NCBI GenBank assembly: GCA_965221125.1
Contig: CBDCRW010000005.1
Location: 224,001 to 288,000 of the forward strand
DNA: 64,000 nt
Reading direction: 5' to 3'
From: Alphaproteobacteria bacterium
GTDB taxonomy: Bacteria > Pseudomonadota > Alphaproteobacteria > UBA828
Below are positions 2,652 through 31,370 of this stretch, one piece after another. Position 1 is the first letter of the stretch. Each line of letters opens with the position of its first letter. The notes beneath the pieces were generated by a model that was not told where the DNA came from, did no database searches, and saw only the letters and a program-made list of their open reading frames with translations. Made by a program: the position numbers and the translations under genes.

Positions 2652-3118
2652 GTGGCGGGATCCTTGGGCTCGCTGGGAGCACTATCGCTTGCGGGCTCTT
2701 CGGCGGCAGGCGCGGCCTCGACAGCCTGCGGCTGCGGCTCGGGGGCGGGCGGCGCCTCGGGCGCTTCGGGTGCGGCCTCCTTCGGCGGCTCGGGCCTGGC
2801 CTCGGCCGGCGCGGGCGTAGCCTCGGGCGGGGGCGCCAGCGGCTCGAAGTCGACGCGCTCGCCAAAAACCTCGCTGGCCGGATAGGTGGTCAAAATCTCG
2901 TCGGTCACCGTGTTGCGCTCGGCGATGAACCAGTAGGACGTGGCGACGTGGCACCACCACTCGCGCACCACGCCGGCCACGTTCTCCTCCAGCCACACAT
3001 ACGCCGCCCATTCTTCGTCCGAGCAGCGGTTGGGATCGGGATGCGGCTCGACCGGGCCGGCGCAGACGAACTCCTGGATGTTGCGCGGCCCGTTGAGCGG
3101 ACAGGGCATGATCTTCAT
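2648..3118 (-). CDS. soxD: Sarcosine oxidase delta / MgdB-like subunit with Pro/Ala/Glu-rich tail
   Basis: MKIMPCPLNGPRNIQEF...EWWCH...ERNTVTDEI motif; lies between beta and alpha subunits. Confidence 0.88.
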   Translation of the reverse strand: MKIMPCPLNGPRNIQEFVCAGPVEPHPDPNRCSDEEWAAYVWLEENVAGVVREWWCHVATSYWFIAERNTVTDEILTTYPASEVFGERVDFEPLAPPPEATPAPAEARPEPPKEAAPEAPEAPPAPEPQPQAVEAAPAAEEPASDSAPSEPKDPAT

Positions 3119-3133
3119 CGGCGCGCCCCTGCC

Positions 3134-4375
3134 CTAGTGCCCGACCGAGGCCGCGCCCTTCTCGCCCAGCAGCGAGAAGTCGCGGAAGCGATCGAGACGG
3201 AACGTCCTGATCAGCTCGGGCACGCGGCCGGTCGCGATCATCTCCGCCATGGTGGTGCCGCAGACCGGCGTCGCCTTGAAGCCCCAGGTGCCCCAGCCGG
3301 AATCGATGTAGTAGTTCTCGACCGGGGTGAGCCCCATGACCGGCGCGAAGTCCGGCGTCATGTCGGTCATCCCGGCCCACTGGCGCAGCACCGGCACGTC
3401 GCCCATGAAGGGGAAGAGCTCCAGGATGTGCGCCATCAGCCCTTCCATGAAGTCGAGCGTCGACGAGGTCTGGTAGCGCGGGTAGGGATCGGTGGCGCCC
3501 CCCATCACCAGCTCGCCCCGGTCCGACTGCGAGATGTAGACGTGCAGGCTGCCCGAGACGATGATCGGGTCGAGAAAGGGTTTTAAAGGCAGCGAGACGC
3601 AGGCCTGCAGCGGCACGGTGCGGATCGGCAGCGTGAAGCCGGCAAGCCGCGCGACCTGGCCGCTCAGCCCCGCCACCGCCTGCATCGCCTTGCCGCAGGC
3701 GACCGGCCCCCGCGTGGTCTCGAGCCCCGTGACGCGGCCGTTCTCGATCTTGATGCCCGTGACCTCGGTCTCCTGGTGGATCTCGACGCCAAGCTCCTGC
3801 GCGCGCCCGGCATAGCCCCAGGCGATGGCATCGTGGCGGGCCAGCGCGCCCGGCGGATGATAGAGCGCGCCGAGCACCGGGTGGCGGACGTCTTCAGACA
3901 TGTTGAGCAGCGGCACCAGCCGGGCCAGCTCCTCGCGCCCCACCACCTCGGAATCGACGCCGAGGTGCTTGTTCACCTCGGCCCGCCAGCGCGAGGTGCG
4001 CATGGCCGCGTCGGAATGCGCGAGGGTGAAGTGCCCGCGCTCGGAATAGAGGATGTTGTAGTCGAGCTCCTCGCTGAGGCCCCGGTAGAGCCGCATCGAT
4101 TCCTCGTAGAACCTGACCCCTTCCGGCGTCAGGTAGTTGGAGCGGATGATGGCGGTGTTGCGCCCGGTGTTGCCGCCACCGAGCCAGCCCTTGTCGAACA
4201 CGGCGACGTTGCGCACGCCGTGCCGCGCCGCGAGGTAGTAGGCGGCCGCGAGCCCGTGGCCGCCGCCGCCGATGATGGCGACGTCGTAGCTCGGCCTAAG
4301 CTCCGGCCGGGCGCCGAGGAAGCGCTTCACCGGCCGGCGCCGGGAGAGGCCGTATTTCAGGAGGCCGAACGCCAT
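3134..4375 (-). CDS. soxB: Sarcosine oxidase beta / MgdA-like FAD subunit
   Basis: IIGGGGHGLA, GGGNTGRNT, GWGTWGFKATP, C-terminal EKGAASVGH. Confidence 0.9.
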   Translation of the reverse strand: MAFGLLKYGLSRRRPVKRFLGARPELRPSYDVAIIGGGGHGLAAAYYLAARHGVRNVAVFDKGWLGGGNTGRNTAIIRSNYLTPEGVRFYEESMRLYRGLSEELDYNILYSERGHFTLAHSDAAMRTSRWRAEVNKHLGVDSEVVGREELARLVPLLNMSEDVRHPVLGALYHPPGALARHDAIAWGYAGRAQELGVEIHQETEVTGIKIENGRVTGLETTRGPVACGKAMQAVAGLSGQVARLAGFTLPIRTVPLQACVSLPLKPFLDPIIVSGSLHVYISQSDRGELVMGGATDPYPRYQTSSTLDFMEGLMAHILELFPFMGDVPVLRQWAGMTDMTPDFAPVMGLTPVENYYIDSGWGTWGFKATPVCGTTMAEMIATGRVPELIRTFRLDRFRDFSLLGEKGAASVGH

Positions 4376-4447
4376 GGTTCGCCGTCGTCGCTAAAATGCT
4401 CGCGGTTGATAGGCCGATTTGCGTGACGCGGCAAGAACTTGTCGTCG

Positions 4448-5410
4448 TTATTGGTCCGACCGCTCGGCCTCGTAGCGGGCGGCCTGCTCGCGCAGCCCCC
4501 GCGCGGTGCCGGCGTTGATGAGGACTAGGCTCAGCACCAGCACGGCGACCGCCGCCCACACCCAGTGGCTCAGCGCCGCGCCGAAGAAGATGCTGGCCCA
4601 GAAGATGCCGGCGGCGACGACGACGTAGTTGAGCTGCGCGAAGAAGAGCGCGCCGGCGCGGCGCACGATCTCGAAGAAGCAGCTGTAGGTGATCGCTTGG
4701 CCCGCCGTGGCCCAGAGCAGGCCCCAGAGGCCGGAGGACGCGGCGTCGGTCGGCAGGAAGAACGTCGCGCCTTCGGCGAGCATCACGACGAGCAGCAGGA
4801 GCGCCGCCGTGATCATCATGCCGCCGCAGAGCGCGAACGCGCTCACGCCCACCGGCGAGAAGCGCGCGCCCGCGACATTGTTCACCGCCGCGGACAGCGG
4901 CATCAGCAGCGAGAACAGCACCCACACCCAGGCGCCCGCGACCGGCAGGCTGCCCGTGGGCACGACGATGAGCAGGATGCCGCCGAAGCCGAGCAACACG
5001 CCGGCGACGCTGAGCCAGCGGAAGCGGTCGAATCGGAGCACGAGGGTGAGCGAGTACGTGGCCGCCGGGATCAGCGCGGCGCAGAGCGTGAGCACCGCCG
5101 GCGGCAGCCGGTCGGCAACGTAGGTGACGACGAGCAGGGGCCCGAGGAAGCCGAAGACCGCGACCAGCGCGAAGACGCGCAGGTTCTCGCGGCGGAGCGA
5201 CGGCAGCTTGGAGAAGACCGCGGACAGCGCCAGCGTGACCACGCCCGCGAACAGCGCCTGCCAGAACGAATACGCGATGAAGGGGAAGCCCGCGTCGATG
5301 GCGATCTTGTTGGCGGTGAACAGGCTGCCGTAGGAGATGCCGCCCAATAGCAGCAGCACCGTCGGCAGCAGGAGCTTGCTCTGGCGCAGGTCTTGGAGCG
5401 ACCAGCTCAT
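4448..5410 (-). CDS. DMT/EamA family transporter
   Basis: About 10 hydrophobic helices with GVLLGFGGI and two-repeat EamA layout. Confidence 0.8.
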   Translation of the reverse strand: MSWSLQDLRQSKLLLPTVLLLLGGISYGSLFTANKIAIDAGFPFIAYSFWQALFAGVVTLALSAVFSKLPSLRRENLRVFALVAVFGFLGPLLVVTYVADRLPPAVLTLCAALIPAATYSLTLVLRFDRFRWLSVAGVLLGFGGILLIVVPTGSLPVAGAWVWVLFSLLMPLSAAVNNVAGARFSPVGVSAFALCGGMMITAALLLLVVMLAEGATFFLPTDAASSGLWGLLWATAGQAITYSCFFEIVRRAGALFFAQLNYVVVAAGIFWASIFFGAALSHWVWAAVAVLVLSLVLINAGTARGLREQAARYEAERSDQ

Positions 5411-5535
5411 GGCCCAGGCTCGCGCACGGCAGCCCGGCGTGCGTTCCGATCCGGGAGGTGGGATGACATGAAGAGGCGGGACGGGGCGGCTCGCGCCGGC
5501 CGTTCAGCCCGTGCTCGCGAGCGAGGGCGGCGGCG

Positions 5536-5610
5536 TGGTGGGCGCTGATGGATTTGAACCATCGACCTCTTGCATGTCAAGCAAGCGCTCTCCCCCTGAG
5601 CTAAGCGCCC
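5536..5610 (-). tRNA. tRNA-Val(GAC)
   Basis: Reverse complement GGGCGCTTAGCTCAGGGGGAGAGCGCTTGCTT-GAC-ATGCAAGAGGTCGATGGTTCAAATCCATCAGCGCCCACCA forms a cloverleaf with encoded CCA. Confidence 0.96.
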
Positions 5611-5705
5611 GTGCCGCGGTGCGCGAGATTGCCATCGTGCGCGCGGCGTTGGCAAGGCCGGGCGCACGGATGACAGGGCCGGCCTTTTGCTCTAAACCGC
5701 GAGGG

Positions 5706-6623
5706 ATGAGCCGAGGACGACCAAACGCCCGGCGACGCCGCGAGGAGCCCCCGCCGGAGGCCGTCAACGGGGTCATCGACGTCCGCCTGCCGCAGCACCA
5801 GACGGCGCCGCTCATCCTCGCCTCCCCTCACAGCGGCAACGATTACGACCCCGCGTTCATCGCGAGCTCCCGGCTCGACGAGAAGAGCCTGCGCCGCTCC
5901 GAGGACAGCTTCGTCGACGAGATCTTCGCGGGTGCGCCGGAGAGCGGCGCACCGCTCCTCTGCGCGCTCTACCCCCGCGCCTACCTGGACCCCAACCGCG
6001 AGCCTTACGAGCTCGACCCCGAGATGTTCTGCGAGCCGCTCCCGAGCCACGTGAAGACGCGCTCCGACCGGGTGCGCGCCGGCTTCGGCACCATCGCCCG
6101 CATGGTCGCCTCGGGCGCTGAGATATACGCCGGCAAGATGTCCTACGCCGAGGCCGAGCGGCGCATCGACACGCTCTACCGCCCCTATCACCGGGCGCTC
6201 GAAGGGCTGATCGAGGCGACGCTCAGGGACTTCGGCGCGGCCTTCCTGCTCGACTGCCACTCGATGCCCTCGGTGGGCGGGCCGACGGACCGGGACCGCG
6301 GCACGCCGCGCCCCGACATCGTGCTCGGCGACCGCTTCGGCGCCTCGTGCACGCCTTCCGTGGTCGAGGCGGCGGAGCGCATCCTGCGCGATCTGGGCTT
6401 CTCGGTGCGGCGCAACGAGCCCTACGCCGGCGCGTTTACCACCTCCCACTACGGCCAGCCGGGAAAACGCGTCCACGCGCTGCAGATCGAGGTCAACCGC
6501 CGCCTCTACATGAACGAGGCCACGGTCGCCCGCTCGCGCGACCTGCCCGGGCTGAGGCGCAAGATGACCGGCTTCATCGCCGCCATGGCGGAAGAGAGCC
6601 TCGCGCTGGTCGAGACGCTCTGA
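5706..6623 (+). CDS. N-formylglutamate amidohydrolase family protein
   Basis: ASPHSG, RRSED, DCHSMPS, DIVLGDRFG, HALQIEVNR motifs; start uncertain (5670 or 5706). Confidence 0.88.
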   Translation: MSRGRPNARRRREEPPPEAVNGVIDVRLPQHQTAPLILASPHSGNDYDPAFIASSRLDEKSLRRSEDSFVDEIFAGAPESGAPLLCALYPRAYLDPNREPYELDPEMFCEPLPSHVKTRSDRVRAGFGTIARMVASGAEIYAGKMSYAEAERRIDTLYRPYHRALEGLIEATLRDFGAAFLLDCHSMPSVGGPTDRDRGTPRPDIVLGDRFGASCTPSVVEAAERILRDLGFSVRRNEPYAGAFTTSHYGQPGKRVHALQIEVNRRLYMNEATVARSRDLPGLRRKMTGFIAAMAEESLALVETL

Positions 6624-6717
6624 GCGTGCCACCCATCTGTTGAACGGGCACGATGCCTGGAATTATGATGGCCGCGCGGCGGCACGGGGCCGCCAGGCAA
6701 CTCGCAGGGAGCAGACC

Positions 6718-7965
6718 ATGAGACTGAGCCGCAGACAGTTCTTCCAAGCCGCATCCGGCGCGCTGGCCTTCGCCAGCTTGCCTCATGTTCTGCGACGCGC
6801 CGGCATCGCTGCCGAGGACCCGATCAAGGTCGGCAACATCCTCGACCGCACCGGCATCCTCAACATCTACAGCCTGAAGCAGATCCAGGCGACGGCGATG
6901 GCGGTGGACGAGATCAACGCCGCCGGCGGCCTGCTGGGCCGGCCGCTGGAGCTGGTGTTCTACGATTCCCAGTCCGACGGCCAGTACAACTCCCAGTACG
7001 TCACCGAAGCCCTGGTCAAGGACAAGTGCGTGGTGGTGCACGGCGGCATCACCAGCTCCTCGCGCGAGGTGATGCGCCCCATCGTCAACCGCTTCAAGGG
7101 GCTGCTCTTCTACAACTCCCTCTACGAGGGGGGCGTCTGCGACCGCCGGCATGTTTCCACCGGCATGGTGCCGGCGCAGCAGCTCGAGCCGCTGTTCGAC
7201 TACGTGGTGAGCGAGCTCGGCGGCAAGCGCACCTATATCCTCGCGGCCGACTACAACTACGGCCACATCACGTCCAAGTGGATGCAGAAGTTCACCCGCG
7301 ACAACGGCGGCGAGGACCTGGCGGTCGAGTTCTTCCCCCTCGACGTCACCAACTTCCAGCCGGCGATCTCGCGCATCCAGGCGGCGAAGCCGGACGTGGT
7401 GATGTCGGCGCTGGTGGGCGGCGCGCACATCGCCTTCTACCGCCAGTTCGAGGCCTCCATCGGCAAGGACAACATGATGCTCGCCTCGGGCTCCTATGGC
7501 GTGGGCCTGGAGCACACCCAGCTCAGCCCCGAGGAGGGCAACGGCATCATCCTCGCCACCTCCTTCGTGGACGACCTCGACACCGACGCGGCGCGGGACT
7601 TCGTGAGCCGCTTCCACGCGTATACGGGCGATACCGGCTACGTGGGCGAGTACGGCGAGTACGGCGAGCGCGGGGTCAAGGTCTGGGCCGAGGCGGTGCG
7701 CCAGGCGGGCGATGCCAGCCCCGACGCGGTGATCGAGGCGCTGGCGTCCTCCAACGTCAGCGTCGCCGGCGCGGGCGGGCAGTACACGGTCGACGGGCAG
7801 ACCAACCACACGACCATGGACATCCACATCGTGCGCGGGAACATGAGCCAGACCTTCGACGTGATCCGCTCGTTCTCGCAGCGCCCGCCGCTGGATACGC
7901 AGCAGGTCTGCGACCTGCACGCGAACCCCGACGACAAGACCCAGTACGAGGTCGAGGTCGAGTAG
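6718..7965 (+). CDS. Urea/amide-type ABC transporter substrate-binding protein (UrtA/FmdD/AmiC-like) with Tat signal
   Basis: SRRQFF twin-arginine signal; INAAGGLLGR, TSSSRE, YNSLYEGG, ADYNYG. Confidence 0.85.
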   Translation: MRLSRRQFFQAASGALAFASLPHVLRRAGIAAEDPIKVGNILDRTGILNIYSLKQIQATAMAVDEINAAGGLLGRPLELVFYDSQSDGQYNSQYVTEALVKDKCVVVHGGITSSSREVMRPIVNRFKGLLFYNSLYEGGVCDRRHVSTGMVPAQQLEPLFDYVVSELGGKRTYILAADYNYGHITSKWMQKFTRDNGGEDLAVEFFPLDVTNFQPAISRIQAAKPDVVMSALVGGAHIAFYRQFEASIGKDNMMLASGSYGVGLEHTQLSPEEGNGIILATSFVDDLDTDAARDFVSRFHAYTGDTGYVGEYGEYGERGVKVWAEAVRQAGDASPDAVIEALASSNVSVAGAGGQYTVDGQTNHTTMDIHIVRGNMSQTFDVIRSFSQRPPLDTQQVCDLHANPDDKTQYEVEVE

Positions 7966-8105
7966 GCGACGCGGCGTCACGACGACGGTTTCGTAGCCGG
8001 GACGCAGGCTCCGTCGGCGGCGGGGATCGCCGCCGGCGGAGCGTCTCGCGTTCGCGGATGCGCATCCCGGCCCGGCCGGCCTTGCCGGGGCGGCGGGAGT
8101 GAGCG

Positions 8106-8966
8106 GTGGATCAGGTCGCGAACTATCTCTTCCAGATCGGCTTTTCCTTCTCGATCTTCATCCTGATCAGCCTCGGGCTCGCGGTCATCTTCGGGATGAT
8201 GCGGGTCATCAACCTGGCGCAGGGCGAGTTCCTCATGCTCGGCGCCTACTTCTGCACCCTCGCCAACCAGGCCGGCATCAACCTCTGGCTCTCGTTCATC
8301 CTGGCGGCGCTCGCCGTGGGCGTCTTCGGCATCATCGTCGAGCGCCTGGTCATCCAGTGGCTCTACGGCCGCATCATCGACACGCTGCTGGCCACCTGGG
8401 GGCTCAGCCTGCTGCTGGTGGGGGGCGTGACCACCATCTTCGGGCCGCAGACCGAGAGCGTGGCAGCGCCCCTCGGCAACGTGCAGGTGGGCGCCTTCGG
8501 CTTCCCCATCTACGGCCTCGTGATGATGGCGATCGCCGTGGTCCTGCTGGGCGCGGTCTACGCCTTCTGGCGCTTCACCCGCTTCGGGCTGATCGTGCGT
8601 GGCACCATGCAGAACCCGAACATCTCCGCCGCCCTCGGGGTCAACCGCAGCCTCGTCTACATGCTGACCTTCGCCTTCGGCTCCGCGCTCACCGGGCTCG
8701 CCGGCGCGGTGCTGGCGCCCATCGTCGGCGCGTATCCCACGCTCGGCATCGTCTACATCGCCAAGGCCTTCATCACGGTCATCACCGGCGGCCACCTGCC
8801 ACTGATCGGCACGGTGAGCGCGTCCGGCCTCTTCAGCACCATCGACGGCATCGTCGCCACCGTCTCCAGCTCGGTGATCGGCGAGATGACCGTGCTGTTC
8901 GTCGCCATAATCCTGCTCCGGCTGCTGCCGCTCGGCATCACCGGGCGCATGACGCGCGGGGTCTGA
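8106..8966 (+). CDS. ABC permease (UrtB/LivH-like)
   Basis: GLAVIFGMMRVINLAQGEFLMLGAY. Confidence 0.88.
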   Translation: MDQVANYLFQIGFSFSIFILISLGLAVIFGMMRVINLAQGEFLMLGAYFCTLANQAGINLWLSFILAALAVGVFGIIVERLVIQWLYGRIIDTLLATWGLSLLLVGGVTTIFGPQTESVAAPLGNVQVGAFGFPIYGLVMMAIAVVLLGAVYAFWRFTRFGLIVRGTMQNPNISAALGVNRSLVYMLTFAFGSALTGLAGAVLAPIVGAYPTLGIVYIAKAFITVITGGHLPLIGTVSASGLFSTIDGIVATVSSSVIGEMTVLFVAIILLRLLPLGITGRMTRGV

Positions 8967-8969
8967 GCG

Positions 8970-10076
8970 ATGATCCACGGCATCGTCGCCATGCAGCATT
9001 CGAGCGAGAAGCCCAAGTGGTGGTGGTGGGCCTTCGTCGCCGCTCTCGCGGCCTTCTTCATCACCATGCCCTTCCACCTGGAGATCTTCGTCATCCTCGA
9101 GATGTCGCGCTTCTTCGGGATGGCGATGCTGGCGCTCAGCATGGGCTTCCTCTGGGGCTTCAGCGGCATCCTGAGCTTCGGGCAGACGGCGTTCTTCGGC
9201 CTCGGCGGCTACGGCTTCACCGTGCTCGCGCTGAATACGGGGGAGACCACGGGCTCGGTCTTCTTCGCCGTGGCGCTGGGCGCGGCCGGCGCGGGCATCC
9301 TCGGCTACTTCATGATCTACGGCCGCATCAGCGAGATCTATCTGAGCGTCATCACCCTCGTCTTCACGCTGATCCTGGAGAAGGGCATCCGCGCCACCTC
9401 GGGCGATCAGTACGTCATCGGCAAGGTGCGGCTGAACGGCCAGAACGGCATCCCCACCGTGCCGCAGCTCGACGTGCCGTGGAACCCGAGCGTTCAGCTC
9501 GACATCAACTGGTTCTTCTGGGTGGGCGCCGTGCTCATGATCCTGGTCTACATCGGGCTCCGCATGATCCTGACCACGCCCTTCGGCCGCGTGCTGGTCG
9601 GCATCCGCGAGAACGAGCGGAGGACCGAGCTGCTCGGCTACGACACCCGGCGCTACAAGCTCGCGGCCTTCATGCTGGCGGGCGGCGTGGCCGGGCTCGG
9701 CGGCGCGCTCTACGCCATCTCGATCCCGCTGGCGCACCCGGAGATGTTCAGCCTGGGCCGCGCGGCGGACGTCATCATGTGGGTGCTGGTGGGCGGCAAG
9801 GGCACGCTGATCGGCCCCATCGCGGGCGTCTTCGCCATCGAGCACTTCAAGGGCTGGCTGGGCACGCAAGGCGTGGGGCAAGTGACGCTGGTGCTGGGCG
9901 CGGTGCTGATCCTCTTCGTGCTCGTCTTCCAGCGGGGCCTCGTGCCGAGCATCGGCTCCCTGCCGGCGCTGTGGCAGGACCGCGCCTCGATCGGGCGGCG
10001 GCTGGGGGAGGTCGCGGCGGACGTCCGCGCGCCGATGCGGCGCCGGGCGCGGCCCCGCCGGGAAGGCCGGTCATGA
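8970..10076 (+). CDS. ABC permease (UrtC/LivM-like)
   Basis: WGFSGILSFGQTAFFGLGGY, GIRENERR, VGGKGTLIGP. Confidence 0.88.
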   Translation: MIHGIVAMQHSSEKPKWWWWAFVAALAAFFITMPFHLEIFVILEMSRFFGMAMLALSMGFLWGFSGILSFGQTAFFGLGGYGFTVLALNTGETTGSVFFAVALGAAGAGILGYFMIYGRISEIYLSVITLVFTLILEKGIRATSGDQYVIGKVRLNGQNGIPTVPQLDVPWNPSVQLDINWFFWVGAVLMILVYIGLRMILTTPFGRVLVGIRENERRTELLGYDTRRYKLAAFMLAGGVAGLGGALYAISIPLAHPEMFSLGRAADVIMWVLVGGKGTLIGPIAGVFAIEHFKGWLGTQGVGQVTLVLGAVLILFVLVFQRGLVPSIGSLPALWQDRASIGRRLGEVAADVRAPMRRRARPRREGRS

Positions 10077-10813
10077 GCGAGGCGGCGCGCGAGCACGAGG
10101 TCATCCTGGAGACGAAGGCGCTGGAGAAGCGTTTCGGCGGCGTGAGCGCCATCGCGGGCGTCGACTTCTCGCTGAGAAGGGGCGAGCTGCGCTGCCTGAT
10201 CGGGCCGAACGGCGCGGGCAAGAGCACCTTCTTCAAGATGCTCACCGCCCAGATCAGGCCGTCCGCCGGGCAGGTGCTGTTCGACGGCCGCGACATCAGC
10301 CGCGCGCACCCGCACGAAATCTCCCGCCTCGGCATCGGCATCAAGAACCAGGTGCCGGACGTCTACGACGGCATCACCGTGGACGAGAACCTGTGGCTGG
10401 CGGCGCGCTTCCGCCACGGCGCACGGGCCGCGCGCGCCAAGGTGGACGAGACGCTCGCCCGGCTCGACCTCGGCGACATCCGCTGGCAGATGCTGGGCGC
10501 CTTGGCCCACGGCCAGCGCCAGTGGGTCGAGTTCGGCATGGTGATGGCGCTGGAGCCCGAGATCATCCTGCTCGACGAGCCGACGGCGGGCATGAGCATC
10601 GAGGAGACGAACCGCACGGCGGCGCTGATCCGCGAGGTGAACCGCACCACGACCATCGTCGTGGTCGAGCACGACATGCAGTTCATCCGCCAGATCGCCG
10701 ATATCGTCACCGTGTTCCACCAGGGCCGCATCCTGGCCGAGGACACCATGGCGCGCATCCAGGCCAACCGGGCCGTGCGCGAGGTCTACCTGGGGACCTC
10801 CGGCCTTGCTTGA
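10073..10813 (+). CDS. ABC ATP-binding protein (UrtD/LivG-like)
   Basis: GPNGAGKST, LLDEPTAGM, VVEHDM; ATGA overlap. Confidence 0.9.
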   Translation: MSEAAREHEVILETKALEKRFGGVSAIAGVDFSLRRGELRCLIGPNGAGKSTFFKMLTAQIRPSAGQVLFDGRDISRAHPHEISRLGIGIKNQVPDVYDGITVDENLWLAARFRHGARAARAKVDETLARLDLGDIRWQMLGALAHGQRQWVEFGMVMALEPEIILLDEPTAGMSIEETNRTAALIREVNRTTTIVVVEHDMQFIRQIADIVTVFHQGRILAEDTMARIQANRAVREVYLGTSGLA

Positions 10814-11498
10814 GGTGGAAGGCCTTAGCGCCGGCTACGGCCGCATCCCGATCCTGAACGGGATCGAGTTCTCCATCGCGCGCGGCGAGATCGTGGGCGT
10901 GCTCGGCCACAACGGCATGGGCAAGACGACGCTCTTGCGCACGCTGATGGGGGAGATCCGCGCCACCGGCGGCAGCATCCACTTCGAGGACGAGGACATC
11001 ACCCGGCTCGCCATGCACCGGCGCGCGCGGCTCGGCATCGGCTATGTGCCGCAGGGGCGCGACATCTATCCGCAGCTCAGCGTCATGGACAACCTGCGCA
11101 TGGGCGAGATCGTGCGCCGCGGCCAGAGCGCCGTGCCGGAGCTGCTCGACTACTTCCCGCTGCTGGAGACGCTGCTGGAGCGGCCGGGGCGCGCGCTCTC
11201 CGGCGGCGAGCAGCAGATTCTGGCGCTGGCCCGCTGCCTCGCCGGGCGGCCGCGCCTCCTGCTGCTGGACGAGCCCACGGAGGGCATCCAGCCCTCCATC
11301 GTCGATCAGATCCAGGCGAAGCTCGCCGAGCTTGCCGCGGCGCTCGACCTCACGGTGCTGCTGGTCGAGCAGAACCTCCGCTTCATCCAGGCGCTGGCGG
11401 AGCGGGTGCTGATCATGCAGAAGGGCACCATCGTCGCGACCATCGCGCCGGAGCAGCTCTCCGACCAAGCGATCGTGGACGAGTACCTGGGCATCTGA
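10806..11498 (+). CDS. ABC ATP-binding protein (UrtE/LivF-like)
   Basis: GHNGMGKTT, LSGGEQQ, LDEPTEGIQPS. Confidence 0.9.
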   Translation: MLEVEGLSAGYGRIPILNGIEFSIARGEIVGVLGHNGMGKTTLLRTLMGEIRATGGSIHFEDEDITRLAMHRRARLGIGYVPQGRDIYPQLSVMDNLRMGEIVRRGQSAVPELLDYFPLLETLLERPGRALSGGEQQILALARCLAGRPRLLLLDEPTEGIQPSIVDQIQAKLAELAAALDLTVLLVEQNLRFIQALAERVLIMQKGTIVATIAPEQLSDQAIVDEYLGI

Positions 11499-11594
11499 CC
11501 GGCGGGCACCGCCGGCCCCGCACCATGGTGCCTTGTTCAGCTACAGACCGAGAGTCATGGGTTCATGGATCGCGAATGGTGGTCGTCGACCGTT

Positions 11595-11804
11595 TCATTC
11601 GTGTTCCAATGGCGTGCGCTGTCCCAGCTTCGCCAGGCGCCGCGCGAATTCCCGTTCAAGCCGCCTTCGGCGGAACGGTGTGAGCTTGAGCCAGTCTCCG
11701 ATCTCGGCGGCGGTCCTGCCACAGCCCAGGCACCACCCCGTCTTCGGGTCGAGTTGGCAGACGTCGATGCATGGGGATTGCGCGCGTCTCGCCCTCCGTC
11801 TCAT
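11595..11804 (-). CDS. DUF1289 family small Cys-rich protein
   Basis: SPCIDVC...CLGCGRT..EI..W signature. Confidence 0.8.
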   Translation of the reverse strand: MRRRARRAQSPCIDVCQLDPKTGWCLGCGRTAAEIGDWLKLTPFRRRRLEREFARRLAKLGQRTPLEHE

Positions 11805-11837
11805 GGAAGAACCTCGATTGGAGTTCCCTGTTCGCGC

Positions 11838-12893
11838 TCATGATGGAGTGCGCCAGTCGGAAAGGCTAATTCGACCGACAAAGCCGCCCTCGGTACCGAG
11901 CGCGAGATGCTGCCCATCCGCCGACCATGCGAGCGCGGTGACGGCGCCCTCGCCGGGTCGCTTGACCACGGCCGGATGATCGCGGTCGATCTGCACGAGG
12001 ATGGCGGCACCGTCCTCGTATCCGGCGGCGACCACGTCATGCCGGGGGTGGGCAGCCACCACCGTCACCACGCCCTCGAAGCCCCACCCGAGGTCGAGCG
12101 CCGCCTTGCCGAGTGGACCGCTCTTGCCGTGGAATGGCCAACAAACCACGGACTCCGCGCCGGCGGTCGCCAGATACCTTCCCTTCGGCAGCCAGCTCAT
12201 CGACTTGACCTTCGTCGGGTAGCCGGGCATCTGCATATCGGTGCCGTCGGAGACACGCCAACCGTGCAGTTCGTTCTCCTGCATTGCGGTGACGATGTAT
12301 TTCCCGTCCGGGCTCCAGGTCAGACTGAGGTGCGAACCCGACCAGCTGAGTCGCTTGGGTTTCTGCGTGCTGGGCTTCGCCCACCAGAGGCTGACCCCAC
12401 CATAGTGCGCGGCGGCGATCCGCCGCCCTTTCGGGTCGAATGCCAGACCGCCGACCGTGTTCGCATGATCGAACGCTCCGACCGCTCTTCCATCCTGCGC
12501 GAAAAGGGAAACTGTCTTGCCGAAGACCGCAGCGCATAGTCCGGATGCCCTGCTCACGGCAATCGGCTCGACCCATCGCCCCGCAATGGCTGCGATTTCG
12601 ATGGTCTCGCCGTCGCTATCGGTGCTCACCAGCCGAGCGTCGTCTCCGCCCGTCAGAACGCGCTGCTGCCCCGAGTCGACGGCCAGCGAAAGACAAGGCC
12701 CGTCATGCACCGAAACGAAGGACGGAGAATTCGTGCTCTCGCTGTCGATGAACGCGACCCGACCGTCCCCGAGTGCAGCCGCGAGCAGCCCCTCCTCAAG
12801 GAACGCGAGGCCCACCACATAAGCGTCGAGCGAGCAGCCGGCGCCGATGCGATCGAGCAGCGACGTCTTGTCCAGCTCAGTGGACAAGCTCAT
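11838..12893 (-). CDS. WD40 repeat protein (partner of a CobW/COG0523 GTPase)
   Basis: Repeated beta-propeller blades (LTGGDD, LAFDPKG, LTWSPDG, LAWSADG); MPGYPTKVKS. Confidence 0.85.
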   Translation of the reverse strand: MSLSTELDKTSLLDRIGAGCSLDAYVVGLAFLEEGLLAAALGDGRVAFIDSESTNSPSFVSVHDGPCLSLAVDSGQQRVLTGGDDARLVSTDSDGETIEIAAIAGRWVEPIAVSRASGLCAAVFGKTVSLFAQDGRAVGAFDHANTVGGLAFDPKGRRIAAAHYGGVSLWWAKPSTQKPKRLSWSGSHLSLTWSPDGKYIVTAMQENELHGWRVSDGTDMQMPGYPTKVKSMSWLPKGRYLATAGAESVVCWPFHGKSGPLGKAALDLGWGFEGVVTVVAAHPRHDVVAAGYEDGAAILVQIDRDHPAVVKRPGEGAVTALAWSADGQHLALGTEGGFVGRISLSDWRTPS

Positions 12894-25456: not shown

Positions 25457-25695
25457 GAACGATTTCCGACCTTACGAGATCACTGCGGCCAGAACACTCC
25501 CACCTCCCCCTGTCCCCCTCCTCCCATTGGGAGGAGGGGGGACGCTGACGCCGATGGCGGAGAGTCTCCCTCTCCTCCCCGCCGGGGAGGAGAGGGCCGG
25601 GGTGAGGTGGGGGATTCTTTTCGGACCGCGCAGCACTTGAAGGCGCGACCCTGCGGCAAGCGCGAACGATTCCATCCGATCGGATAGTGCGCTAG
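25457..25695 (+). repeat. Miniature palindromic repeat family B
   Basis: CGATTTCCGACCTTACGAGATCACTGCGG...GGAGAGGGCCGGGGTGAGGTGGGG...; homologous to 39319 and 49768 copies. Confidence 0.85.
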
Positions 25696-26411
25696 CGGGT
25701 GAAGCGCGATTCGGTGTCCGCGGTGCCGAACCTGCGGCTGTCCTCGTCGCTCCAGCGCGCGCCGCTCGCCTGGGTCGCGAACTTCTCGACCATGTACGCG
25801 CCGGCCGTGATCGGCGGATATTTCGCCGGCCGCTCCGCGCTCTGGCAGGTCGGCAGGCACTCGATCACCGCGTCGTGACGGGGCTCGACGAAATAGCAGA
25901 GCGACAGGCGCGGCCCGGCGGCGCGCGGCGGATTGACCACGCGATGCCGCGTGGAACGCCAGCGGTCGTTGGTCCACCGCATCATCTGGTCGCCGATATT
26001 GACCACGAACGATCCGGCGACGGCCTGCACGTCCACCCAGGCGCCGTCGGGGCTCCGCGCCTGCAGGCCCCCCGGCTTGTCCTCGATCAGGCAGATCGTG
26101 AGGTTGTCGTAGTCCGAGTGCTCGCCGGCGCGGAGCTGCCCCTCGTCCGGCGCCGTCCGCTGCTCCGGATAATTCAGCACACGCAGAATGCTGAATCCGT
26201 TCTCGAGCCGCGCGTCGAAATGATCCTCCGGCAGGTCGAACGCCAGCGCCGCGATCCTGTGCAGGTGCCGGCCCAGCCGGTCCAGCGCCCGGATGTAGGC
26301 CTCGATCGCCGGCCGGAACGCCGCCGGACGCCGCGGCCACAGGTTGGGCGCGTAGTGGGGCGCCGCCGCCGCCGTGCGGAAGGAGGGATCGTCCGGCACG
26401 TCGAGCGGCCC
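25692..26411 (-). pseudogene. 3' part of an isopenicillin-N-synthase-family 2OG-Fe(II) oxygenase interrupted by the transposon
   Basis: HSD...H facial triad (GEHSDY, STRHRV), RLS motif; in frame with 31038-31370 once the element is removed. Confidence 0.9.
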
Positions 26412-26785
26412 GATGGTGTTGTTTTCCGGTCTAGCCGGATAGAAGCACGGGTTTTTTTCTCACTTTGATTGGTTGGTGGATTTCCCGGGATGGTGGCCGA
26501 GTGCGGGAAGGACGCTGCCTGCGGCATTTTTTTGATCCTCAGCAGAATCCTCATTGCTGTTGAAGCTGTGGAGCGGTGGGCGCGAGATCGGCGAGTGTGG
26601 TCAGGCGGTGGGCAAGCGCCAGCTTGTCCACGGGCTGTCCACACGGTCCGCAGGACGCCGATCGGTCCGCAGGACGCGTCCACGGCTCCACAGCTTGGCG
26701 GCGGCGGGGAGCGTCCGTAATCTTGGCCTCTCACTGAACGACAAAGAGAGGCCCGGGGGACGGAACTCCCGCCGGGCCAGGGCCG

Positions 26786-27421
26786 GTGCAGCTTCGCTAC
26801 GAAACGGGGCTCACCAGCGAGGAATACGTTAAGACCGAGGCGTGGCGCGACGCAAGGCTTGAGCGCTGCCCGAATCACCCGCACGGCGGATGTTCTGTGG
26901 CAAGCCACGGCACCTACGAGCGGAAGACCCCGCCCGGCGCAAGGGTTCCTCGCTGGTATTGCCGTGAGAGCCATACGACCATCGGCCTGCTGGCCGACTG
27001 TCTGGCGGCGCGGCTGCCGGGCACGCTCGATGCGCTGGAAGCGGTTGTTGTCGTGGCGGAGGAGGCCGGCAGCCTGGAGGAGGCAGCGGACGAGGTGCGC
27101 TGCCCCGAGGACGAGGACGCCATCGAGCTTCCCGGCGCCGTGCGTTGGATCCGCCGCAGGCTGAAGCTTGTGCACGACGCGCTTGTGCGCGTCATCGGCC
27201 TGATCCCCGACCTGCTCGCGGGCTGCGCGCCCACCATGAGCGCGGTGCGCGAGCGTCTGAAGAGCGACAGCGCGTTGATGGAACTGCGCGGCCTGGTCGC
27301 CGGGCAGCTCCGGACGCTACCCGCGCCTCTGGGCTTCCAACCCCACGGCATCGACGTGGGGAATCGCAAACCGCAGTTCCAACAACGGGCGGGGCCGGAC
27401 CCGCCGCCGGAGAGTTCGTAG
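26786..27421 (+). CDS. Transposon-associated Cys/His protein (DUF6431-like)
   Basis: CPNH...C...HGTYER...WYC...TIGLLADC; first gene of the element. Confidence 0.65.
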   Translation: MQLRYETGLTSEEYVKTEAWRDARLERCPNHPHGGCSVASHGTYERKTPPGARVPRWYCRESHTTIGLLADCLAARLPGTLDALEAVVVVAEEAGSLEEAADEVRCPEDEDAIELPGAVRWIRRRLKLVHDALVRVIGLIPDLLAGCAPTMSAVRERLKSDSALMELRGLVAGQLRTLPAPLGFQPHGIDVGNRKPQFQQRAGPDPPPESS

Positions 27422-27466
27422 CGTGACGATCCCGGGGCCAGGGAGTCCCTGAACGAGGATCGCACC

Positions 27467-28795
27467 ATGAACAGCTCAGACGACGACCTTCGCCAACAGA
27501 TCGCGCTCTTCCGATACGACGTCATCGCCGATCTGGTGCATCTGCCCGTGGGTGCACCGGGTGCCGGCGCGATGATGCGCGCCAAAGCCGAGAAGACCTA
27601 CACGATCCCCGGAACCACCAGGACCCGGGTCGCCGCCGAGACCATGCGGCGCTGGATCAAGGACTACCGCTACGGCGGCTTCGACGCGCTCTACCCCAAG
27701 CCCCGCACCGACCGGGGGAAGCCCCGGCGGCTGCCGCCCGAGGTCGCCGAGCGCCTCATCGCGCTGAAGACCGAGAACGACGCATTGTCGGTTCGCGCCA
27801 TCATCCAGAAGGTCAAGGAGGAGGGTATCGACCACCCGCTCGCCTCGTCCACCGTGCACCGCCTCTTCAGCCGCGAGGGCCTGTTCGACAAGAAGCCGCC
27901 CGACGGGGCGGATCGCCGCCGCTTCGCCTTCCGGCATGCCGGCGAGATGTGGATGAGCGACGTCATGCACGGACCCAAGGTCCGGCACGGCCGAACCCGG
28001 CGCAAGACCTACCTGATCGCCTTCATCGACGACGCCACCCGCGTCATCCCGTTCGCCGCCTTCGCCATGGCGGAGAACACTGCGGCGTTCCTGCCGGTGT
28101 TCAAGGACGCGCTGATCCGGCGCGGCCTCCCGGCCCGCTTGTACGTCGACAACGGAAGCGCCTACCGCTCCCGTCATCTCTCCCTGGTCTGCGCCAGGCT
28201 CGGCGTTGCGTTGATTCACGCAAGGGCGTTCCAGCCAGCGGGAAAGGGTAAGATCGAGCGCTTCTTCCGCACCCTCCGGGCCGGCTGGCTCCGCCACCTC
28301 GGCGATGACGTCGACAGCCTGGAGGCGCTCAACCGCAGCCTCTGGGCCTGGATCGAGGGGGAGTATCACAACAGCCCGCATCGTGGCCTCGACGAGGGGC
28401 GCACCCCGCTTGAGCAGTGGGCGCTGGCCTCGGCCGGCGTGCGCTATCCCGACGCCACCATGGACCTCGACGATCTGTTCCTCTTCGAGGCCAGGCGCCG
28501 TGTCTACAAGGACCGCACCGTTAGTCTGAACGGCCGCGTCTACGAGGTCGACGCCCTCCTGGTGGGTCAGAACGTCATCCTGCGCTACGACCCGGCCGCG
28601 CCGCCCTCGCGCCCTCTCGACGTGGTCCATGACGGCAAGCCGGCCGGCAAGGCCAGCCCTCTCGACGCCTACGCCAATACCGCCGTCAGGCGCACCTACC
28701 CGGCCAGGGAGATCGAGGCCGAAGATCCGGCGCCCGAGCCTCCGCCCTCGCCGCTGGCCATGCGCAACCTCAAGGACAAGAAGGAGGACGAGTGA
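27467..28795 (+). CDS. DDE transposase (HTH + rve core + Mu-transposase C-terminal domain)
   Basis: WMSDVMHG, YVDNGSAY, KGKIERFF, YHNSPH, RRVYKDRTVSLNG. Confidence 0.93.
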   Translation: MNSSDDDLRQQIALFRYDVIADLVHLPVGAPGAGAMMRAKAEKTYTIPGTTRTRVAAETMRRWIKDYRYGGFDALYPKPRTDRGKPRRLPPEVAERLIALKTENDALSVRAIIQKVKEEGIDHPLASSTVHRLFSREGLFDKKPPDGADRRRFAFRHAGEMWMSDVMHGPKVRHGRTRRKTYLIAFIDDATRVIPFAAFAMAENTAAFLPVFKDALIRRGLPARLYVDNGSAYRSRHLSLVCARLGVALIHARAFQPAGKGKIERFFRTLRAGWLRHLGDDVDSLEALNRSLWAWIEGEYHNSPHRGLDEGRTPLEQWALASAGVRYPDATMDLDDLFLFEARRRVYKDRTVSLNGRVYEVDALLVGQNVILRYDPAAPPSRPLDVVHDGKPAGKASPLDAYANTAVRRTYPAREIEAEDPAPEPPPSPLAMRNLKDKKEDE

Positions 28796-29595
28796 TGTAC
28801 CTGCGCCACTTCGCCTTCACCCGCCTGCCCTTCGAGACCCCGGCAGAGACCGACGAGCTGTTCGAGTCCAACGCGCGCCGCGAGGCCGAGGCCAGGCTCG
28901 GCCACCTCATCGACCTGCGCGGCATCGGCCTGCTCACCGGCGAGGTGGGCTCCGGCAAGACCACCGTGTGCCGGCATCTGACCGCGCAGCTTCATCCAGG
29001 CCTCTACCGGGTCCACTACGTCTCGCTGACCACGGGCAACGTGCTCGACATGTACAAGGCGATCGCGTGGGAGATCGGCCTGCCCATCGAGCGCTCCCGC
29101 GCCTCGGCCTATCAGGCCATCCGAAACGAGATCTCCCGCCTCGTCACCGAGGCCAAGCAGCTGCCGGTCCTCGTCATCGACGAGGCCCATCATCTGCGCA
29201 ACGACGTCCTTGAGGACCTGCGCCTGCTCACCAACTTCGCCATGGATGCAGAGCAGCGCCTGTGCCTCGTCCTCGTCGGTCTGACCGAGCTCAGGCGCCG
29301 CCTGGCCATGGCCATGCACGAATCCCTCAGCCAGCGCCTCGTCGTCCGCCACCACCTGAGCGGTCTCGACCGCGACGAGGTCGACGCTTACATCAAGCAC
29401 CGCCTCAGGCTCGCGGGATGCGAACTGCCGCTGTTCGAAGAGCCCGCCGTCGAGGCCCTGTTCCAGGGCGCGCGCGGCCTGCCGCGCCAGATCAACCGCA
29501 TCGCCCACTACGCGCTCTCCGCCGCCGCTCTCGACGAGGCGAGGACCGTCAGTGCCGACCACCTGCAGCACGCGCTCGAGGAACTGCGGCCATGA
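28792..29595 (+). CDS. ExeA/TniB/TnsC-like AAA ATPase (transposition regulator)
   Basis: [28 protein letters not shown]; overlaps the transposase stop. Confidence 0.88.
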   Translation: MMYLRHFAFTRLPFETPAETDELFESNARREAEARLGHLIDLRGIGLLTGEVGSGKTTVCRHLTAQLHPGLYRVHYVSLTTGNVLDMYKAIAWEIGLPIERSRASAYQAIRNEISRLVTEAKQLPVLVIDEAHHLRNDVLEDLRLLTNFAMDAEQRLCLVLVGLTELRRRLAMAMHESLSQRLVVRHHLSGLDRDEVDAYIKHRLRLAGCELPLFEEPAVEALFQGARGLPRQINRIAHYALSAAALDEARTVSADHLQHALEELRP

Positions 29596-30632
29596 CCGGC
29601 TTCCCGACCCGCGCCCCGATCGAGCTGGAGGAGCGGCCGCGCGAGCAGCAATGGCTGGTGGACACGCTATGGGGCGAGCAGGCCGTCGGCATCGTCGGCG
29701 GCGAGCCGAAGTGCGGCAAGTCCATCCTGGCGCTGGACCTCGCGGTCGCAGTCGCCGCCGGCGTCCCATGCCTGCGGCACTTCGCCCCGGCCCGGCCTGG
29801 CCCGGTCCTGCTGTTCGCCGCAGAAGACGCCGGCCACCTCGTGCGCAAGCGCCTGCAGGGGATCGCCCGCGCCGCAGGCGCCCGCTTCGAGACCCTCGAC
29901 ATCGCCGTCATCGACGTGCCCACACTGCGCCTCGACCATCTCGACGACCGCCGCCGCCTGCAGCAGACCGTGGAGCGCATCGCACCGCGCCTCGTGGTCC
30001 TCGACCCCCTGGTCCGCCTGCACGGCGTGGACGAGAACACGGTTGCGGACGTCGCCCCGATCCTCGGCTTCCTGCGCGACCTGCAACGCCGCTTCGAGAC
30101 CGCCGTCCTCCTCGTCCACCACGCCCGCAAGAGCGGGGCCACGAGGCCGGGGCAGGCCCTGCGGGGCAGCAGTGAGCTGCACGCCTGGGGGGACTCGAAC
30201 CTCTACCTGCGCCGCCGGGACCGGCAGACCCTCATGACCGTCGAGCATCGCGCCGCACGCGGTCTCGACGACATCGAGATCGAGCTCAAGGAAGACGGAG
30301 AGGAGCCCTCCTTCCGGCTGCGCCAGCCGCCCACGGCCGGCGGCGGGGCGCCTCAGCCCGAAACACCCGAATGCCGCGTTCTCAAGGCGCTCGCCGACGC
30401 CGGGGCGCCGCTCTCGCAACGCCAGATCCGGGAACGCGCCGCGACCCGGCACAAGACCGTCGGCGTAATCTTGCAAAAGCTCGTCCAGGAGGGTCGCGTC
30501 GCGCGCAACGCCGAGGGCGGCTACAGCGTCGTCGCAGGCGCAGCGGACAAGCGGGCGGCGGCCGCCGCCGCCAACGGCAGCAGTCGGCCGCAGGCCCCGC
30601 GGTTCCCGGAGCCCGGTTCCGCCAACGCCTAG
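29592..30632 (+). CDS. AAA_25/RepA-like RecA-fold ATPase with C-terminal winged HTH
   Basis: WLVDTLW, GGEPKCGKS, LFAAED, VVLDPL, DEN, LVHHARK, RGSS; ATGA coupling. Confidence 0.85.
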   Translation: MTGFPTRAPIELEERPREQQWLVDTLWGEQAVGIVGGEPKCGKSILALDLAVAVAAGVPCLRHFAPARPGPVLLFAAEDAGHLVRKRLQGIARAAGARFETLDIAVIDVPTLRLDHLDDRRRLQQTVERIAPRLVVLDPLVRLHGVDENTVADVAPILGFLRDLQRRFETAVLLVHHARKSGATRPGQALRGSSELHAWGDSNLYLRRRDRQTLMTVEHRAARGLDDIEIELKEDGEEPSFRLRQPPTAGGGAPQPETPECRVLKALADAGAPLSQRQIRERAATRHKTVGVILQKLVQEGRVARNAEGGYSVVAGAADKRAAAAAANGSSRPQAPRFPEPGSANA

Positions 30633-31037
30633 GGGTTCGAGCCGGAACCGCCGTCGGGAACCACCCTTCCCCAACGGTCCGGAAGGCGCTGCGCCTCCAC
30701 CGGGATACTACGTCAGGTGAGCGGCCAGTCCGTGGCCGGAAGCTTGCTTCAGGCCATGGCAGCACTTCGTCGTGTGGACGGTGGCGAGTCACCCGAAGGG
30801 CCGAAGCGAAGCGCAGGAGCGGCGCAGCCGCTTGACGCGCCGACGGCCGCGCGACACCTCGTCAGCTCTCCTCAAGCACCAGTCCAAACCTCAATCAGAC
30901 AGCGACCCCGGACCGCCCGCAGAGACCATGAGCTCCTACGCTTCGATCCGGAAAAGACCGAGCAATCTGGGAAATCAGGGCAGCGATCACGTCAAATAAT
31001 CTGGGAGATTCGGCGTCAAATAACGTGCGAAACAACA

Positions 31038-31370
31038 GATGGAGACGGACTCCTTCAGGTCCGGCGGCGTCGTGAGGCCGATGGTGGCAGAAAGCTGCTC
31101 GGTGCCGAGCGGCTCGTAGCCCCGGTTGGCCTCGTCGCCCGGGTCCTGCCTGATGGCGAGCTTCTCAGCCAGCGGCAGGTCGAAGAAGGCGCGGGAGGCG
31201 TCGCGCGCCCGCGCGCACAGCGCCGGGTCGACCCCGTGGCCCGTGATCAGGAAGAAGCCGATGCGCTCGCAGGCTTCGCTGACCGCGTGCGCCACGCGCT
31301 GCCGGTCGGCGCGGCCCCCGGCGAAATAGGGGCCGAGGTCGATGAGGGGGATCTGGGGTTCGCTCGACAT
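31038..31370 (-). pseudogene. 5' part of the interrupted 2OG-Fe(II) oxygenase
   Basis: IPLIDL...ACERIGFFLITGHGV...NRGY...PPDLKES. Confidence 0.9.

Follow-up and report, generated by a model that had tools for sequence, protein, structure and literature searches.

A multi-copy Mu/Tn6049-type DDE transposon with a RepA-like helicase gene and a conserved structured motif at its right end

Tn6049 is a named but unstudied transposon with a three-gene core of the same known kind as that of the element analyzed here. The sections of the literature devoted to it describe a 3.5 kb element, present in 12 copies in C. metallidurans CH34, whose ATPase gene is called gspA (PMC2864759), and a copy on the P. 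aeruginosa plasmid pHS87a with 12-bp imperfect TG...CA repeats and 4-bp direct repeats (PMC4739549); its transposition module, in the wording of the section concerned in a third report (PMC6210171), "could not be categorized." The pHS87a copy comprises four genes, encoding proteins of 181, 479 (DDE), 277 (AAA_22), and 90 amino acids (aa). Here, we describe a transposon within a 64,000-nucleotide stretch of alphaproteobacterial DNA (positions 224,001 to 288,000 of contig CBDCRW010000005.1, assembly GCA_965221125.1; hereafter, the window). Like Tn6049, it encodes in this order a small Cys-rich/helix-turn-helix (HTH) protein, a DDE transposase, and an AAA_22 ATPase, with a stop/start overlap, and both elements are multi-copy, with TG...CA-type ends and 4–5-bp repeats. 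In contrast, the ends read TGTGCATAAGCA in Tn6049 and TGTTGTTT in this element, and the fourth gene, which encodes the 90-aa protein in Tn6049, is of helicase type here. As the core identities are only 26% for the transposase (E 9e-25) and 28% for the ATPase (E 6e-15), we place the element in a sister clade within the wider DUF6431-DDE-AAA_22 superfamily, rather than among the close relatives of Tn6049. The three reports cited contain no formal definition of a Tn6049 family. On balance, we interpret it as a DDE transposon of the Mu/Tn552/Tn6049 type that is autonomous and still active and that has an accessory replication module, whose part in replication we infer.

The genome that contains the window (4.58 Mb in 7 contigs; 92% completeness, 5.8% contamination) holds 20 copies of the transposon, corresponding to ∼2% of its length. 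Seventeen are intact and 100% identical over exactly positions 1–4621, an identity that consensus polishing of the assembly may have exaggerated, and the other three have a 1453-bp insertion sequence (IS) inserted close to their ends. We compared the flanks of all 20 copies after normalizing their orientation. Perfect 5-bp target duplications flank 15 copies, 4-bp duplications flank two, and in one copy four of five positions agree. The remaining two copies each bear the other's flanks (CGGGG and CCCTC), as expected after inversion. This pair consists of inverted copies ∼40 kb apart, G000:C4:671960-676580 (−) and G000:C4:716887-721507 (+). Because the two bear each other's duplications, the ∼40-kb segment between them is inverted, either by copy-copy recombination or by intramolecular replicative transposition. 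Among the 20 insertion sites there is no common target, and base preference is limited to a weak bias toward C in the first two positions of the duplication.

In the window, the left junction (26412–26424) reads GATGG followed by TGTTGTTTTCCGG, and the right junction (31029–31042) reads GAAACAACA followed by GATGG. Removal in silico of the transposon and one GATGG yields a single 350-aa open reading frame (ORF), the two halves of which match DIOX_N and 2OG-FeII_Oxy. Since the copies, the flanks, and this restored empty-site ORF agree, the ends are exact and the insertion is real. The element is almost certainly an active transposon of the Mu/Tn6049 type. A first-pass annotation, made from the letters of the window, had called 8-bp inverted repeats, the GATGG duplication, four ORFs, and stop/start overlaps, all of which are present in the sequence. 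It had also proposed an intact, compact transposon from a poorly described family of the Mu/Tn7/Tn5053/Tn552 lineage, a view that our analysis bears out. Mapping the ends and duplications of other copies, as that annotation suggested, gave the same boundaries throughout.

All four ORFs lie on the + strand (Table 1). The likely ATG of ORF3, at 28795, overlaps the ORF2 stop codon within the junction GTGATG, and ORF3 and ORF4 overlap at ATGA. The catalytic triad of ORF2, read off an alignment to Tn6049 TnpA, is D165, D228, and E264. Its top PHROG match is phrog_310, a Mu-type transposase (3e-49), and its top NCBIfam match is IS481 (NF033577), with a score (201.9 bits) under the cutoff of 224. ORF3 matches AAA_22 at 5.7e-27 and phrog_296, "DNA transposition protein," at 1.4e-29, with a Walker A motif GSGKT and a Walker B motif VIDEA; its Pfam TniB score of 20.8 bits is under the cutoff of 22.4, and the PEP-CTERM/ExeA-like TIGR03015 is far under its own.

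The pairing of such a transposase with an ATPase recurs in other mobile DNA. Phage Mu, which has TG...CA ends and makes a 5-bp duplication, shares the Mu-type C-terminal domain of the transposase and a MuB-like partner (phrog_310 and phrog_296), and Mu-like phage transposases are ∼25% identical to ORF2 (E 1e-6 to 1e-8 by tblastn). However, the element is not a phage, and it encodes a helicase, whereas Mu relies for replication on its host, depending on PriA and DnaB. Tn552 of Staphylococcus likewise has a DDE transposase with a Mu-type C terminus followed by an AAA ATPase of ∼270 aa; transposases of this type are ∼21–23% identical to ORF2 (E 1e-8 to 1e-10), but Tn552 carries a serine resolvase (BinL) and bla genes, and has neither a DUF6431 gene nor a helicase. 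Tn5053/Tn402 also combine a DDE transposase with an AAA ATPase, and 5-bp duplications are given for a Tn402-like element in the section of PMC4739549 that covers it. In this case, TniA aligns with ORF2 over 125 aa only (E 1e-7), TniB aligns at E 0.01, and the TniQ and TniR of Tn5053/Tn402 are missing from our element.

Membership of several known families was considered and rejected. Pfam and NCBIfam scans of the four ORFs revealed no TniQ, TnsA, TnsD, TnsE, resolvase, or recombinase domain, which sets the element outside Tn5053/Tn402 (no TniQ or TniR, with TniB under threshold), Tn552 (no recombinase domain), and the Tn7-like elements (no TnsA, TnsD/TniQ, or TnsE), for which PADLOC returned only weak matches to TnsB (2.6e-7) and TnsC (9.5e-4). 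Assignment to IS481 fails on the sub-cutoff score and on the presence of four genes, rather than the single gene of an IS. For IS21, NF033546 scores 43 bits against a cutoff of 160, and ORF3 has no match to PF01695 (IstB_IS21).

The closest annotated transposases, at 37–40% identity over ∼90% of the protein, belong to DUF6431-DDE-AAA elements on plasmids of Pandoraea, Geobacillus, Streptomyces, Cupriavidus necator, and others. In these elements, the three genes are ordered alike: a DUF6431 protein of 177–197 aa comes first and the AAA ATPase third. They lack the AAA_25 gene (ORF4), however, and their first protein, unlike ORF1, passes the Pfam threshold for DUF6431. The earlier suggestion of a poorly described four-gene family therefore has to be narrowed: the order of the three core genes already occurs in Tn6049 and in these plasmid elements. 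The literature searched, outside ISfinder and TnCentral, contained no account of a DDE transposon bearing such a module of helicase, Toprim, and motif, and DUF6431 appeared in it in incidental mentions only.

The product of the fourth gene matches Pfam AAA_25 at 9.4e-37, with a sub-threshold match to the MarR_2 winged helix. The sole PDB sequence match for its core is the RepA protein of plasmid RSF1010 (1g8y; phmmer E 9.6e-10), and in the alignment of the two proteins the Walker A motif, catalytic Glu, Walker B motif, His motif, and Arg finger are all in register. These motif residues are invariant in 19 ORF4 homologs, in which residues 1–230 as a whole are nearly invariant. PHROG matches correspond to the helicase halves of primase-helicases, and Foldseek, applied to a weak model (predicted local distance difference test [pLDDT] 52), ranks RepA first, followed by DnaB, RadA, and KaiC. 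The predicted core of ORF4 is that of a RepA/DnaB-type hexameric helicase, with all motifs present. More than 7,800 homologs were found in metagenomes.

ORF4 and RSF1010 RepA share this RecA-fold core, but the likeness is weak (∼24–25% identity in the Foldseek alignment). In contrast to RepA, ORF4 has an extra C-terminal winged helix, and it is housed in a transposon instead of a plasmid replicon, without RepB or RepC partners. Modeling of three copies of residues 1–255 gave a self-association score of 0.56, compared with 0.00 for the best control, with a contact agreement of at least 75% and a partner pLDDT of at least 76; the mark used is reached by 20 of 30 solved homomers and by 1 of 23 single chains. 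We note that the score may reflect likeness only, because the RepA hexamer has already been solved. In the model, an invariant N-terminal arm (residues 2–15) packs against the neighboring core. ORF4 may assemble as a ring and may unwind DNA.

ORF1 matches no Pfam family even at E 10, falling below the gathering threshold of DUF6431 (PF20020), and its structure prediction is poor (pLDDT 45). A profile of 16 ORF1 homologs nevertheless matches the DUF6431 proteins of related elements at an hhalign probability of 96.7% (E 3.7e-10 over 127 columns), and its nearest ESM Atlas clusters carry PF20020 (score 0.98; 28 of 30 matches in DUF6431 sets). On the basis of both matches, we take ORF1 to be a divergent DUF6431-type Zn/HTH protein. 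Its N terminus resembles a Cys/His zinc ribbon, and a helical region contains an RWIRRR segment; CPNHPHGGC and CxESH stand in place of two CxxC knuckles. There is no direct likeness to the first protein of Tn6049 by BLASTP or hhalign; the family of that protein matches the DUF6431 set at 94.7%, which links it indirectly to ORF1. Metagenomes yielded 1297 ORF1 homologs.

The first-pass annotation recognized neither a TniQ nor a resolvase, as did our scans, and suggested that ORF1 and ORF4 stand in for the TniQ/TnsD-type selector and the resolvase of Tn5053/Tn552. With both of these proteins missing, the zinc-ribbon-like N terminus, HTH-like segment, and constant first position of ORF1 would suit a selector, and the predicted DNA-binding winged helix of ORF4 would be compatible with such a substitution. 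However, ORF1 and DUF6431 profiles align with Tn402 TniQ at hhalign probabilities of only 0.2–0.4% (0.2% for ORF1), and the lack of a common target among the 20 insertion sites does not suggest site selection. A resolvase role for ORF4 is contradicted by the alignment of its core with a helicase, with every catalytic motif in place, and by the lack of any recombinase family match in Pfam or NCBIfam. We therefore regard this substitution as very unlikely.

Starting from the transposon's own ORF4, we collected 80 loci in 25 genome bins, many of them copies within one genome, and classed them by tblastn. All four genes are present at 72–99% identity in 19 loci (type A), and two more hold a cut type A element. 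In 57 loci (type B), ORF4 is 66–80% identical, whereas the transposase and/or ATPase upstream of it is only 25–33% identical; ORF4 stands alone in two. Type B elements end in TGAGC...GCTCA (TGAGCGGGCGC...GCGCGCTCA), with duplications of 4–6 bp. Their three core proteins are 51%, 52%, and 40% identical to those of Tn6049, and we class them by sequence as true Tn6049-family elements.

The DNA likeness between type A and type B starts at the ORF4 start codon and stops 226 nt past the ORF4 stop codon. A single branch in an ORF4 tree of 33 rows (Shimodaira–Hasegawa-like approximate likelihood ratio test [SH-aLRT] 99) parts the two types, and within type A, ORF4 and the transposase diverge alike (77% and 79%). 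Given these similar rates, the disparity between ORF4 and the core from one type to the other argues that the module was transferred. ORF4 is thus very probably an exchangeable accessory module of helicase type, rather than a core gene: it is absent from Tn6049 and the plasmid relatives, and it is common to two deeply different lineages. The expectation that ORF1 and ORF4 would be conserved inside the ends holds for the type of ORF1, constant in first position, but not for ORF4 across the wider family. At one locus (L026; CBDEUT010000009.1), one element of type A and one of type B are placed tail to tail, within ∼500 bp, at 2973–7352 and ∼7800–12300. That genome holds many copies of both types, and provides a setting where the right-end module could be exchanged.

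The shared DNA extends into a conserved, structured non-coding motif downstream of ORF4. The motif core is 84–86% identical between type A and type B, above the adjacent coding sequence. From 17 aligned sequences, RNAalifold predicts a hairpin together with a long stem (∼18 pairs) that encloses small hairpins. In this structure, 95.3% of cells pair, a value inflated by deriving the structure from the same sequences, compared with 25.9–49.8% when the partners are slid. Eight pairs show compensatory changes, compared with two to five in the slid controls, and none of the observed measures is reached by shuffles (0/500). Among 642 cells, G-U pairs number 48 and A-C pairs 4; because G-U pairs are so much the more frequent, the motif folds on the + strand, as RNA or single-stranded DNA. 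The single-sequence fold of the downstream region is no better than that of shuffles (z −0.67), and the structure is seen in the alignment only. A covariance model matches the genome solely within the 20 element copies, and in the 40 loci searched, the motif is always on the + strand, after ORF4. A variant without 65 nt of the inner motif (window 30776–30842) occurs in contigs of one DNA run and of an RNA library from the same sample, and partial model matches in L058, L079, and L080 may be similar short forms.

In seven distinct elements (the CAXXVO set, L062, L071, L072, L074, L079, and the L081 set), ORF4 is followed in the same place by a gene for a 289-aa DUF3991+Toprim_2 protein. As PDB sequence and NCBIfam searches of this protein gave no match, the label "primase" derives from its Pfam matches to Toprim_2 and DUF3991 only. 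The full motif and the Toprim gene never occur together in the 40 loci, although one element combines the gene with a partial motif, and the Toprim and motif states are interspersed in the ORF4 tree. A further type-A-like element (L088), with core proteins 40–58% identical to ORF1–ORF3, has no ORF4; a homolog 50% identical to the Toprim protein, itself without a Pfam match, directly follows the ATPase gene. At another locus (L061, 2330–9452), ORF4 and the Toprim gene are found without a transposase or ATPase upstream. This copy appears to have been broken by other mobile DNA, given its neighbors: an IS66-type transposase fragment, a tyrosine integrase, an IstB-like ATPase, and a Fic protein.

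The fourth slot is occupied differently elsewhere, by the 90-aa protein in Tn6049, by a 74-aa protein in the Pandoraea element, and by Toprim or other genes. This variability, the travel of ORF4 between lineages as a unit, and the transposition of related cores without it would all be expected if ORF4 and the motif were selfish or host-beneficial cargo, such as a plasmid-derived gene or one from an integrative and conjugative element, a regulator, or a defense gene, with no part in transposition. We consider this unlikely. The ATGA overlap couples ORF4 translationally to the ATPase gene in both lineages, ORF4 is extremely conserved, and a transposon ATPase lies upstream of it in 78 of the 80 loci, within the limits of a search that began from a transposon and that counts many copies within genomes. 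No PADLOC defense model matches ORF4, nor does any match ORF1. In addition, an alternative occupant of the slot is again of replication type (Toprim), unlike random cargo.

Table 1. Coordinates of the transposon, its genes, and associated features in the window
Feature	Position	Strand	Details and evidence
Whole transposon	26417..31037	+	4621 bp; boundaries common to 20 copies in own genome
Left terminal inverted repeat TGTTGTTT	26417..26424	+	TGTTGT tip kept in 8/8 aligned type A relatives
Right terminal inverted repeat AAACAACA	31030..31037	+	Read from sequence; alignment of relatives
Target-site duplication GATGG, left copy	26412..26416	.	Same 5 bp at 31038..31042 (right copy)
Subterminal repeat GATTTCCCGGGAT, candidate transposase-binding site	26479..26491	+	Kept in left ends of relatives
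Subterminal repeat GATTTCCCAGATT, right end	30964..30976	-	Alignment and motif count
Interrupted host 2-oxoglutarate (2OG)-Fe(II) oxygenase gene, C-terminal part	25692..26416	-	ORF call and Pfam of halves
Interrupted host oxygenase gene, N-terminal part (DIOX_N)	31038..31370	-	ORF call and Pfam of halves
ORF1, 211 aa, divergent DUF6431-type Zn/HTH protein	26786..27421	+	hhalign, ESM Atlas
ORF2, 442-aa DDE transposase (HTH_32, rve, Mu-transpos_C)	27467..28795	+	Pfam, NCBIfam, PHROG
ORF3, 267-aa AAA+ ATPase (AAA_22), MuB/TniB/TnsC type	28792..29595	+	Pfam, PHROG
ORF4, 346 aa, predicted RepA(RSF1010)/DnaB-type RecA-fold ATPase with C-terminal winged helix	29592..30632	+	Pfam, PDB sequence match, Foldseek
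Probable exchangeable module, ORF4 and structured motif	29586..30858	+	∼74–80% DNA identity with Tn6049-family (type B) elements
Conserved structured motif; core 30719–30858 (140 nt)	30713..30870	+	RNAalifold, covariance tests

The terminal regions contain additional repeats. The subterminal repeat GATTTCCCGGGAT has two matches in the window, compared with 0.25 expected, and the right end bears a further degenerate copy at ∼30998–31011, as well as GTCAAATAA twice within the last 50 bp of the transposon. The 1453-bp IS noted above is a second mobile element of this genome, with 14 identical copies (none in the window), G(G/A)T(T/C)GTGTCCC-type ends, and 8-bp duplications (e.g., G000:C7:276233-277685). 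Three of the 14 copies sit within the terminal 180 bp of the transposon, at element positions 172–179, ∼4528–4541, and 4557–4564. In the left non-coding region upstream of ORF1, a 22-nt inverted repeat (26563–26696; 91% complementary, arms 90 nt apart) falls in a ∼170-bp stretch that is absent from 4380-bp relatives. A promoter scan of the element found no sigma-70-like site, and an Rfam scan found nothing relevant, with one chance-level match (E 0.93).

Of 20 other genomes from the same genus, eight contain type A transposases (1–30 copies each); of the 20 genomes searched from other genera, none does. Relatives also occur in bins labeled Alphaproteobacteria, Gammaproteobacteria, Chloroflexota, Acidobacteriota, Actinomycetota, Gemmatimonadota, and Poribacteria, with most of the non-alphaproteobacterial ones on short contigs that binning could misplace. 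Two lie on long sequences: L016, on a 442-kb Dehalococcoidia contig, has four genes 86–96% identical to those in the window and a 5-bp duplication, and L091 is on a 6-Mb Rariloculaceae chromosome. The G+C content of the element is 0.68–0.70 throughout, and that of the flanks is 0.63–0.71. Sponge, marine, and coral metagenome runs from eight studies hold the sequence or part of it. Among the contigs of four runs, those from RNA libraries cover parts of the family, to which DNA carry-over may contribute.

We propose the following mechanism, the first steps of which are modeled on the families to which the core proteins belong. The transposase would bind the TGTTGT tips and the subterminal GATTTCCC repeats (26479–26491 and 30964–30976), nick the 3′ CA ends, and insert them at a 5-bp staggered cut in the target. 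Target capture and activation of the transposase would fall to the AAA+ protein, as they do to MuB, TniB, TnsC, and IstB, and ORF1 may be a DNA-binding regulator or an assembly factor. As there is neither a 5′-end nuclease nor a resolvase, the strand-transfer product would, by hypothesis, be a fork. ORF4, as a ring helicase, could turn this into a replication fork, starting DNA synthesis on the strand-transfer intermediate. Its partner would be either the hairpin on the displaced + strand, acting as a loading or priming site similar to a single-strand initiation signal, or, in sister elements, the Toprim primase. The element would then be copied, by replicative transposition analogous to that of Mu, with little need of host primosome loaders. 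Such a role would fit the lack of a 5′-end nuclease, the bursts of copies, and the spread across hosts. We regard a replicative role of ORF4 in transposition as a possibility worth stating, and a somewhat doubtful one.

Several observations weigh against it. The clean simple insertions (15 of the 20) are also left by cut-and-paste or copy-out elements, and the swapped-flank pair fits plain homologous recombination as well as replicative inversion. Insertion orientation relative to GC skew is 9 to 11, without bias, so nothing ties insertion to forks. Tn6049 and the plasmid relatives transpose although they have no helicase, which means that the chemistry cannot depend on ORF4. Its association with transposases only 25–28% identical argues against specific contacts, and a passenger gene would be equally compatible with it. 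The motif is absent from L016, an apparently intact 4491-bp relative with its 5-bp duplication, and may therefore be dispensable. The structure models of ORF1 and ORF4 are poor, as given above. Finally, no right-end/left-end junction or circle was found in the assembled contigs of four runs, from which rare circles could escape. The present data do not separate replicative from conservative movement.

The missing junction also bears on a different scheme, in which a circular form arises by excision or copy-out, in the manner of IS481 or IS3, and ORF4 with the motif or Toprim protein replicates or completes that circle, serving a transient plasmid-like intermediate rather than a Mu-type fork. 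Strand-displacement replicons such as RSF1010 are laid out in this way, with a helicase and either a single strand-specific hairpin site or a primase; IS481 is the top NCBIfam match of the transposase, and clean simple insertions dominate. However, the IS481 score is under the curated cutoff, the C-terminal domain of the transposase is of Mu type, its partner is MuB-like, and the junction expected of a circle did not appear in the contigs. We consider a circular intermediate improbable, and retain as our preferred reading the Mu/Tn552/Tn6049-type transposon with an accessory replication module.

The standard example of replicative DDE transposition is Mu, which requires a series of host factors for the handover of its transpososome to the replisome. 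Tentatively, and with more doubt than conviction, we suggest that the present elements form a DDE transposon family that carries its own replisome parts, a RepA-type helicase with a hairpin or a Toprim primase, such that Mu-style replication is freed from host primosome loaders. If this is true, self-carried replisome parts could explain the bursts of 20–30 identical copies, as well as the ∼90% identical elements in bins labeled as different phyla from sponge and marine communities. They would be a novel means of extending a transposon's host range, and the handover could be studied in a simple natural system, a small transposon with its own helicase, which in sister elements is joined by a primase-like protein. 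DUF6431, for its part, gains a context, being conserved as gene one across a transposon superfamily. Very abundant in metagenomes, the family reaches 20–30 copies per genome, disrupts genes, and probably drives inversions; for these reasons, we regard it as a major, unannotated shaper of these genomes.

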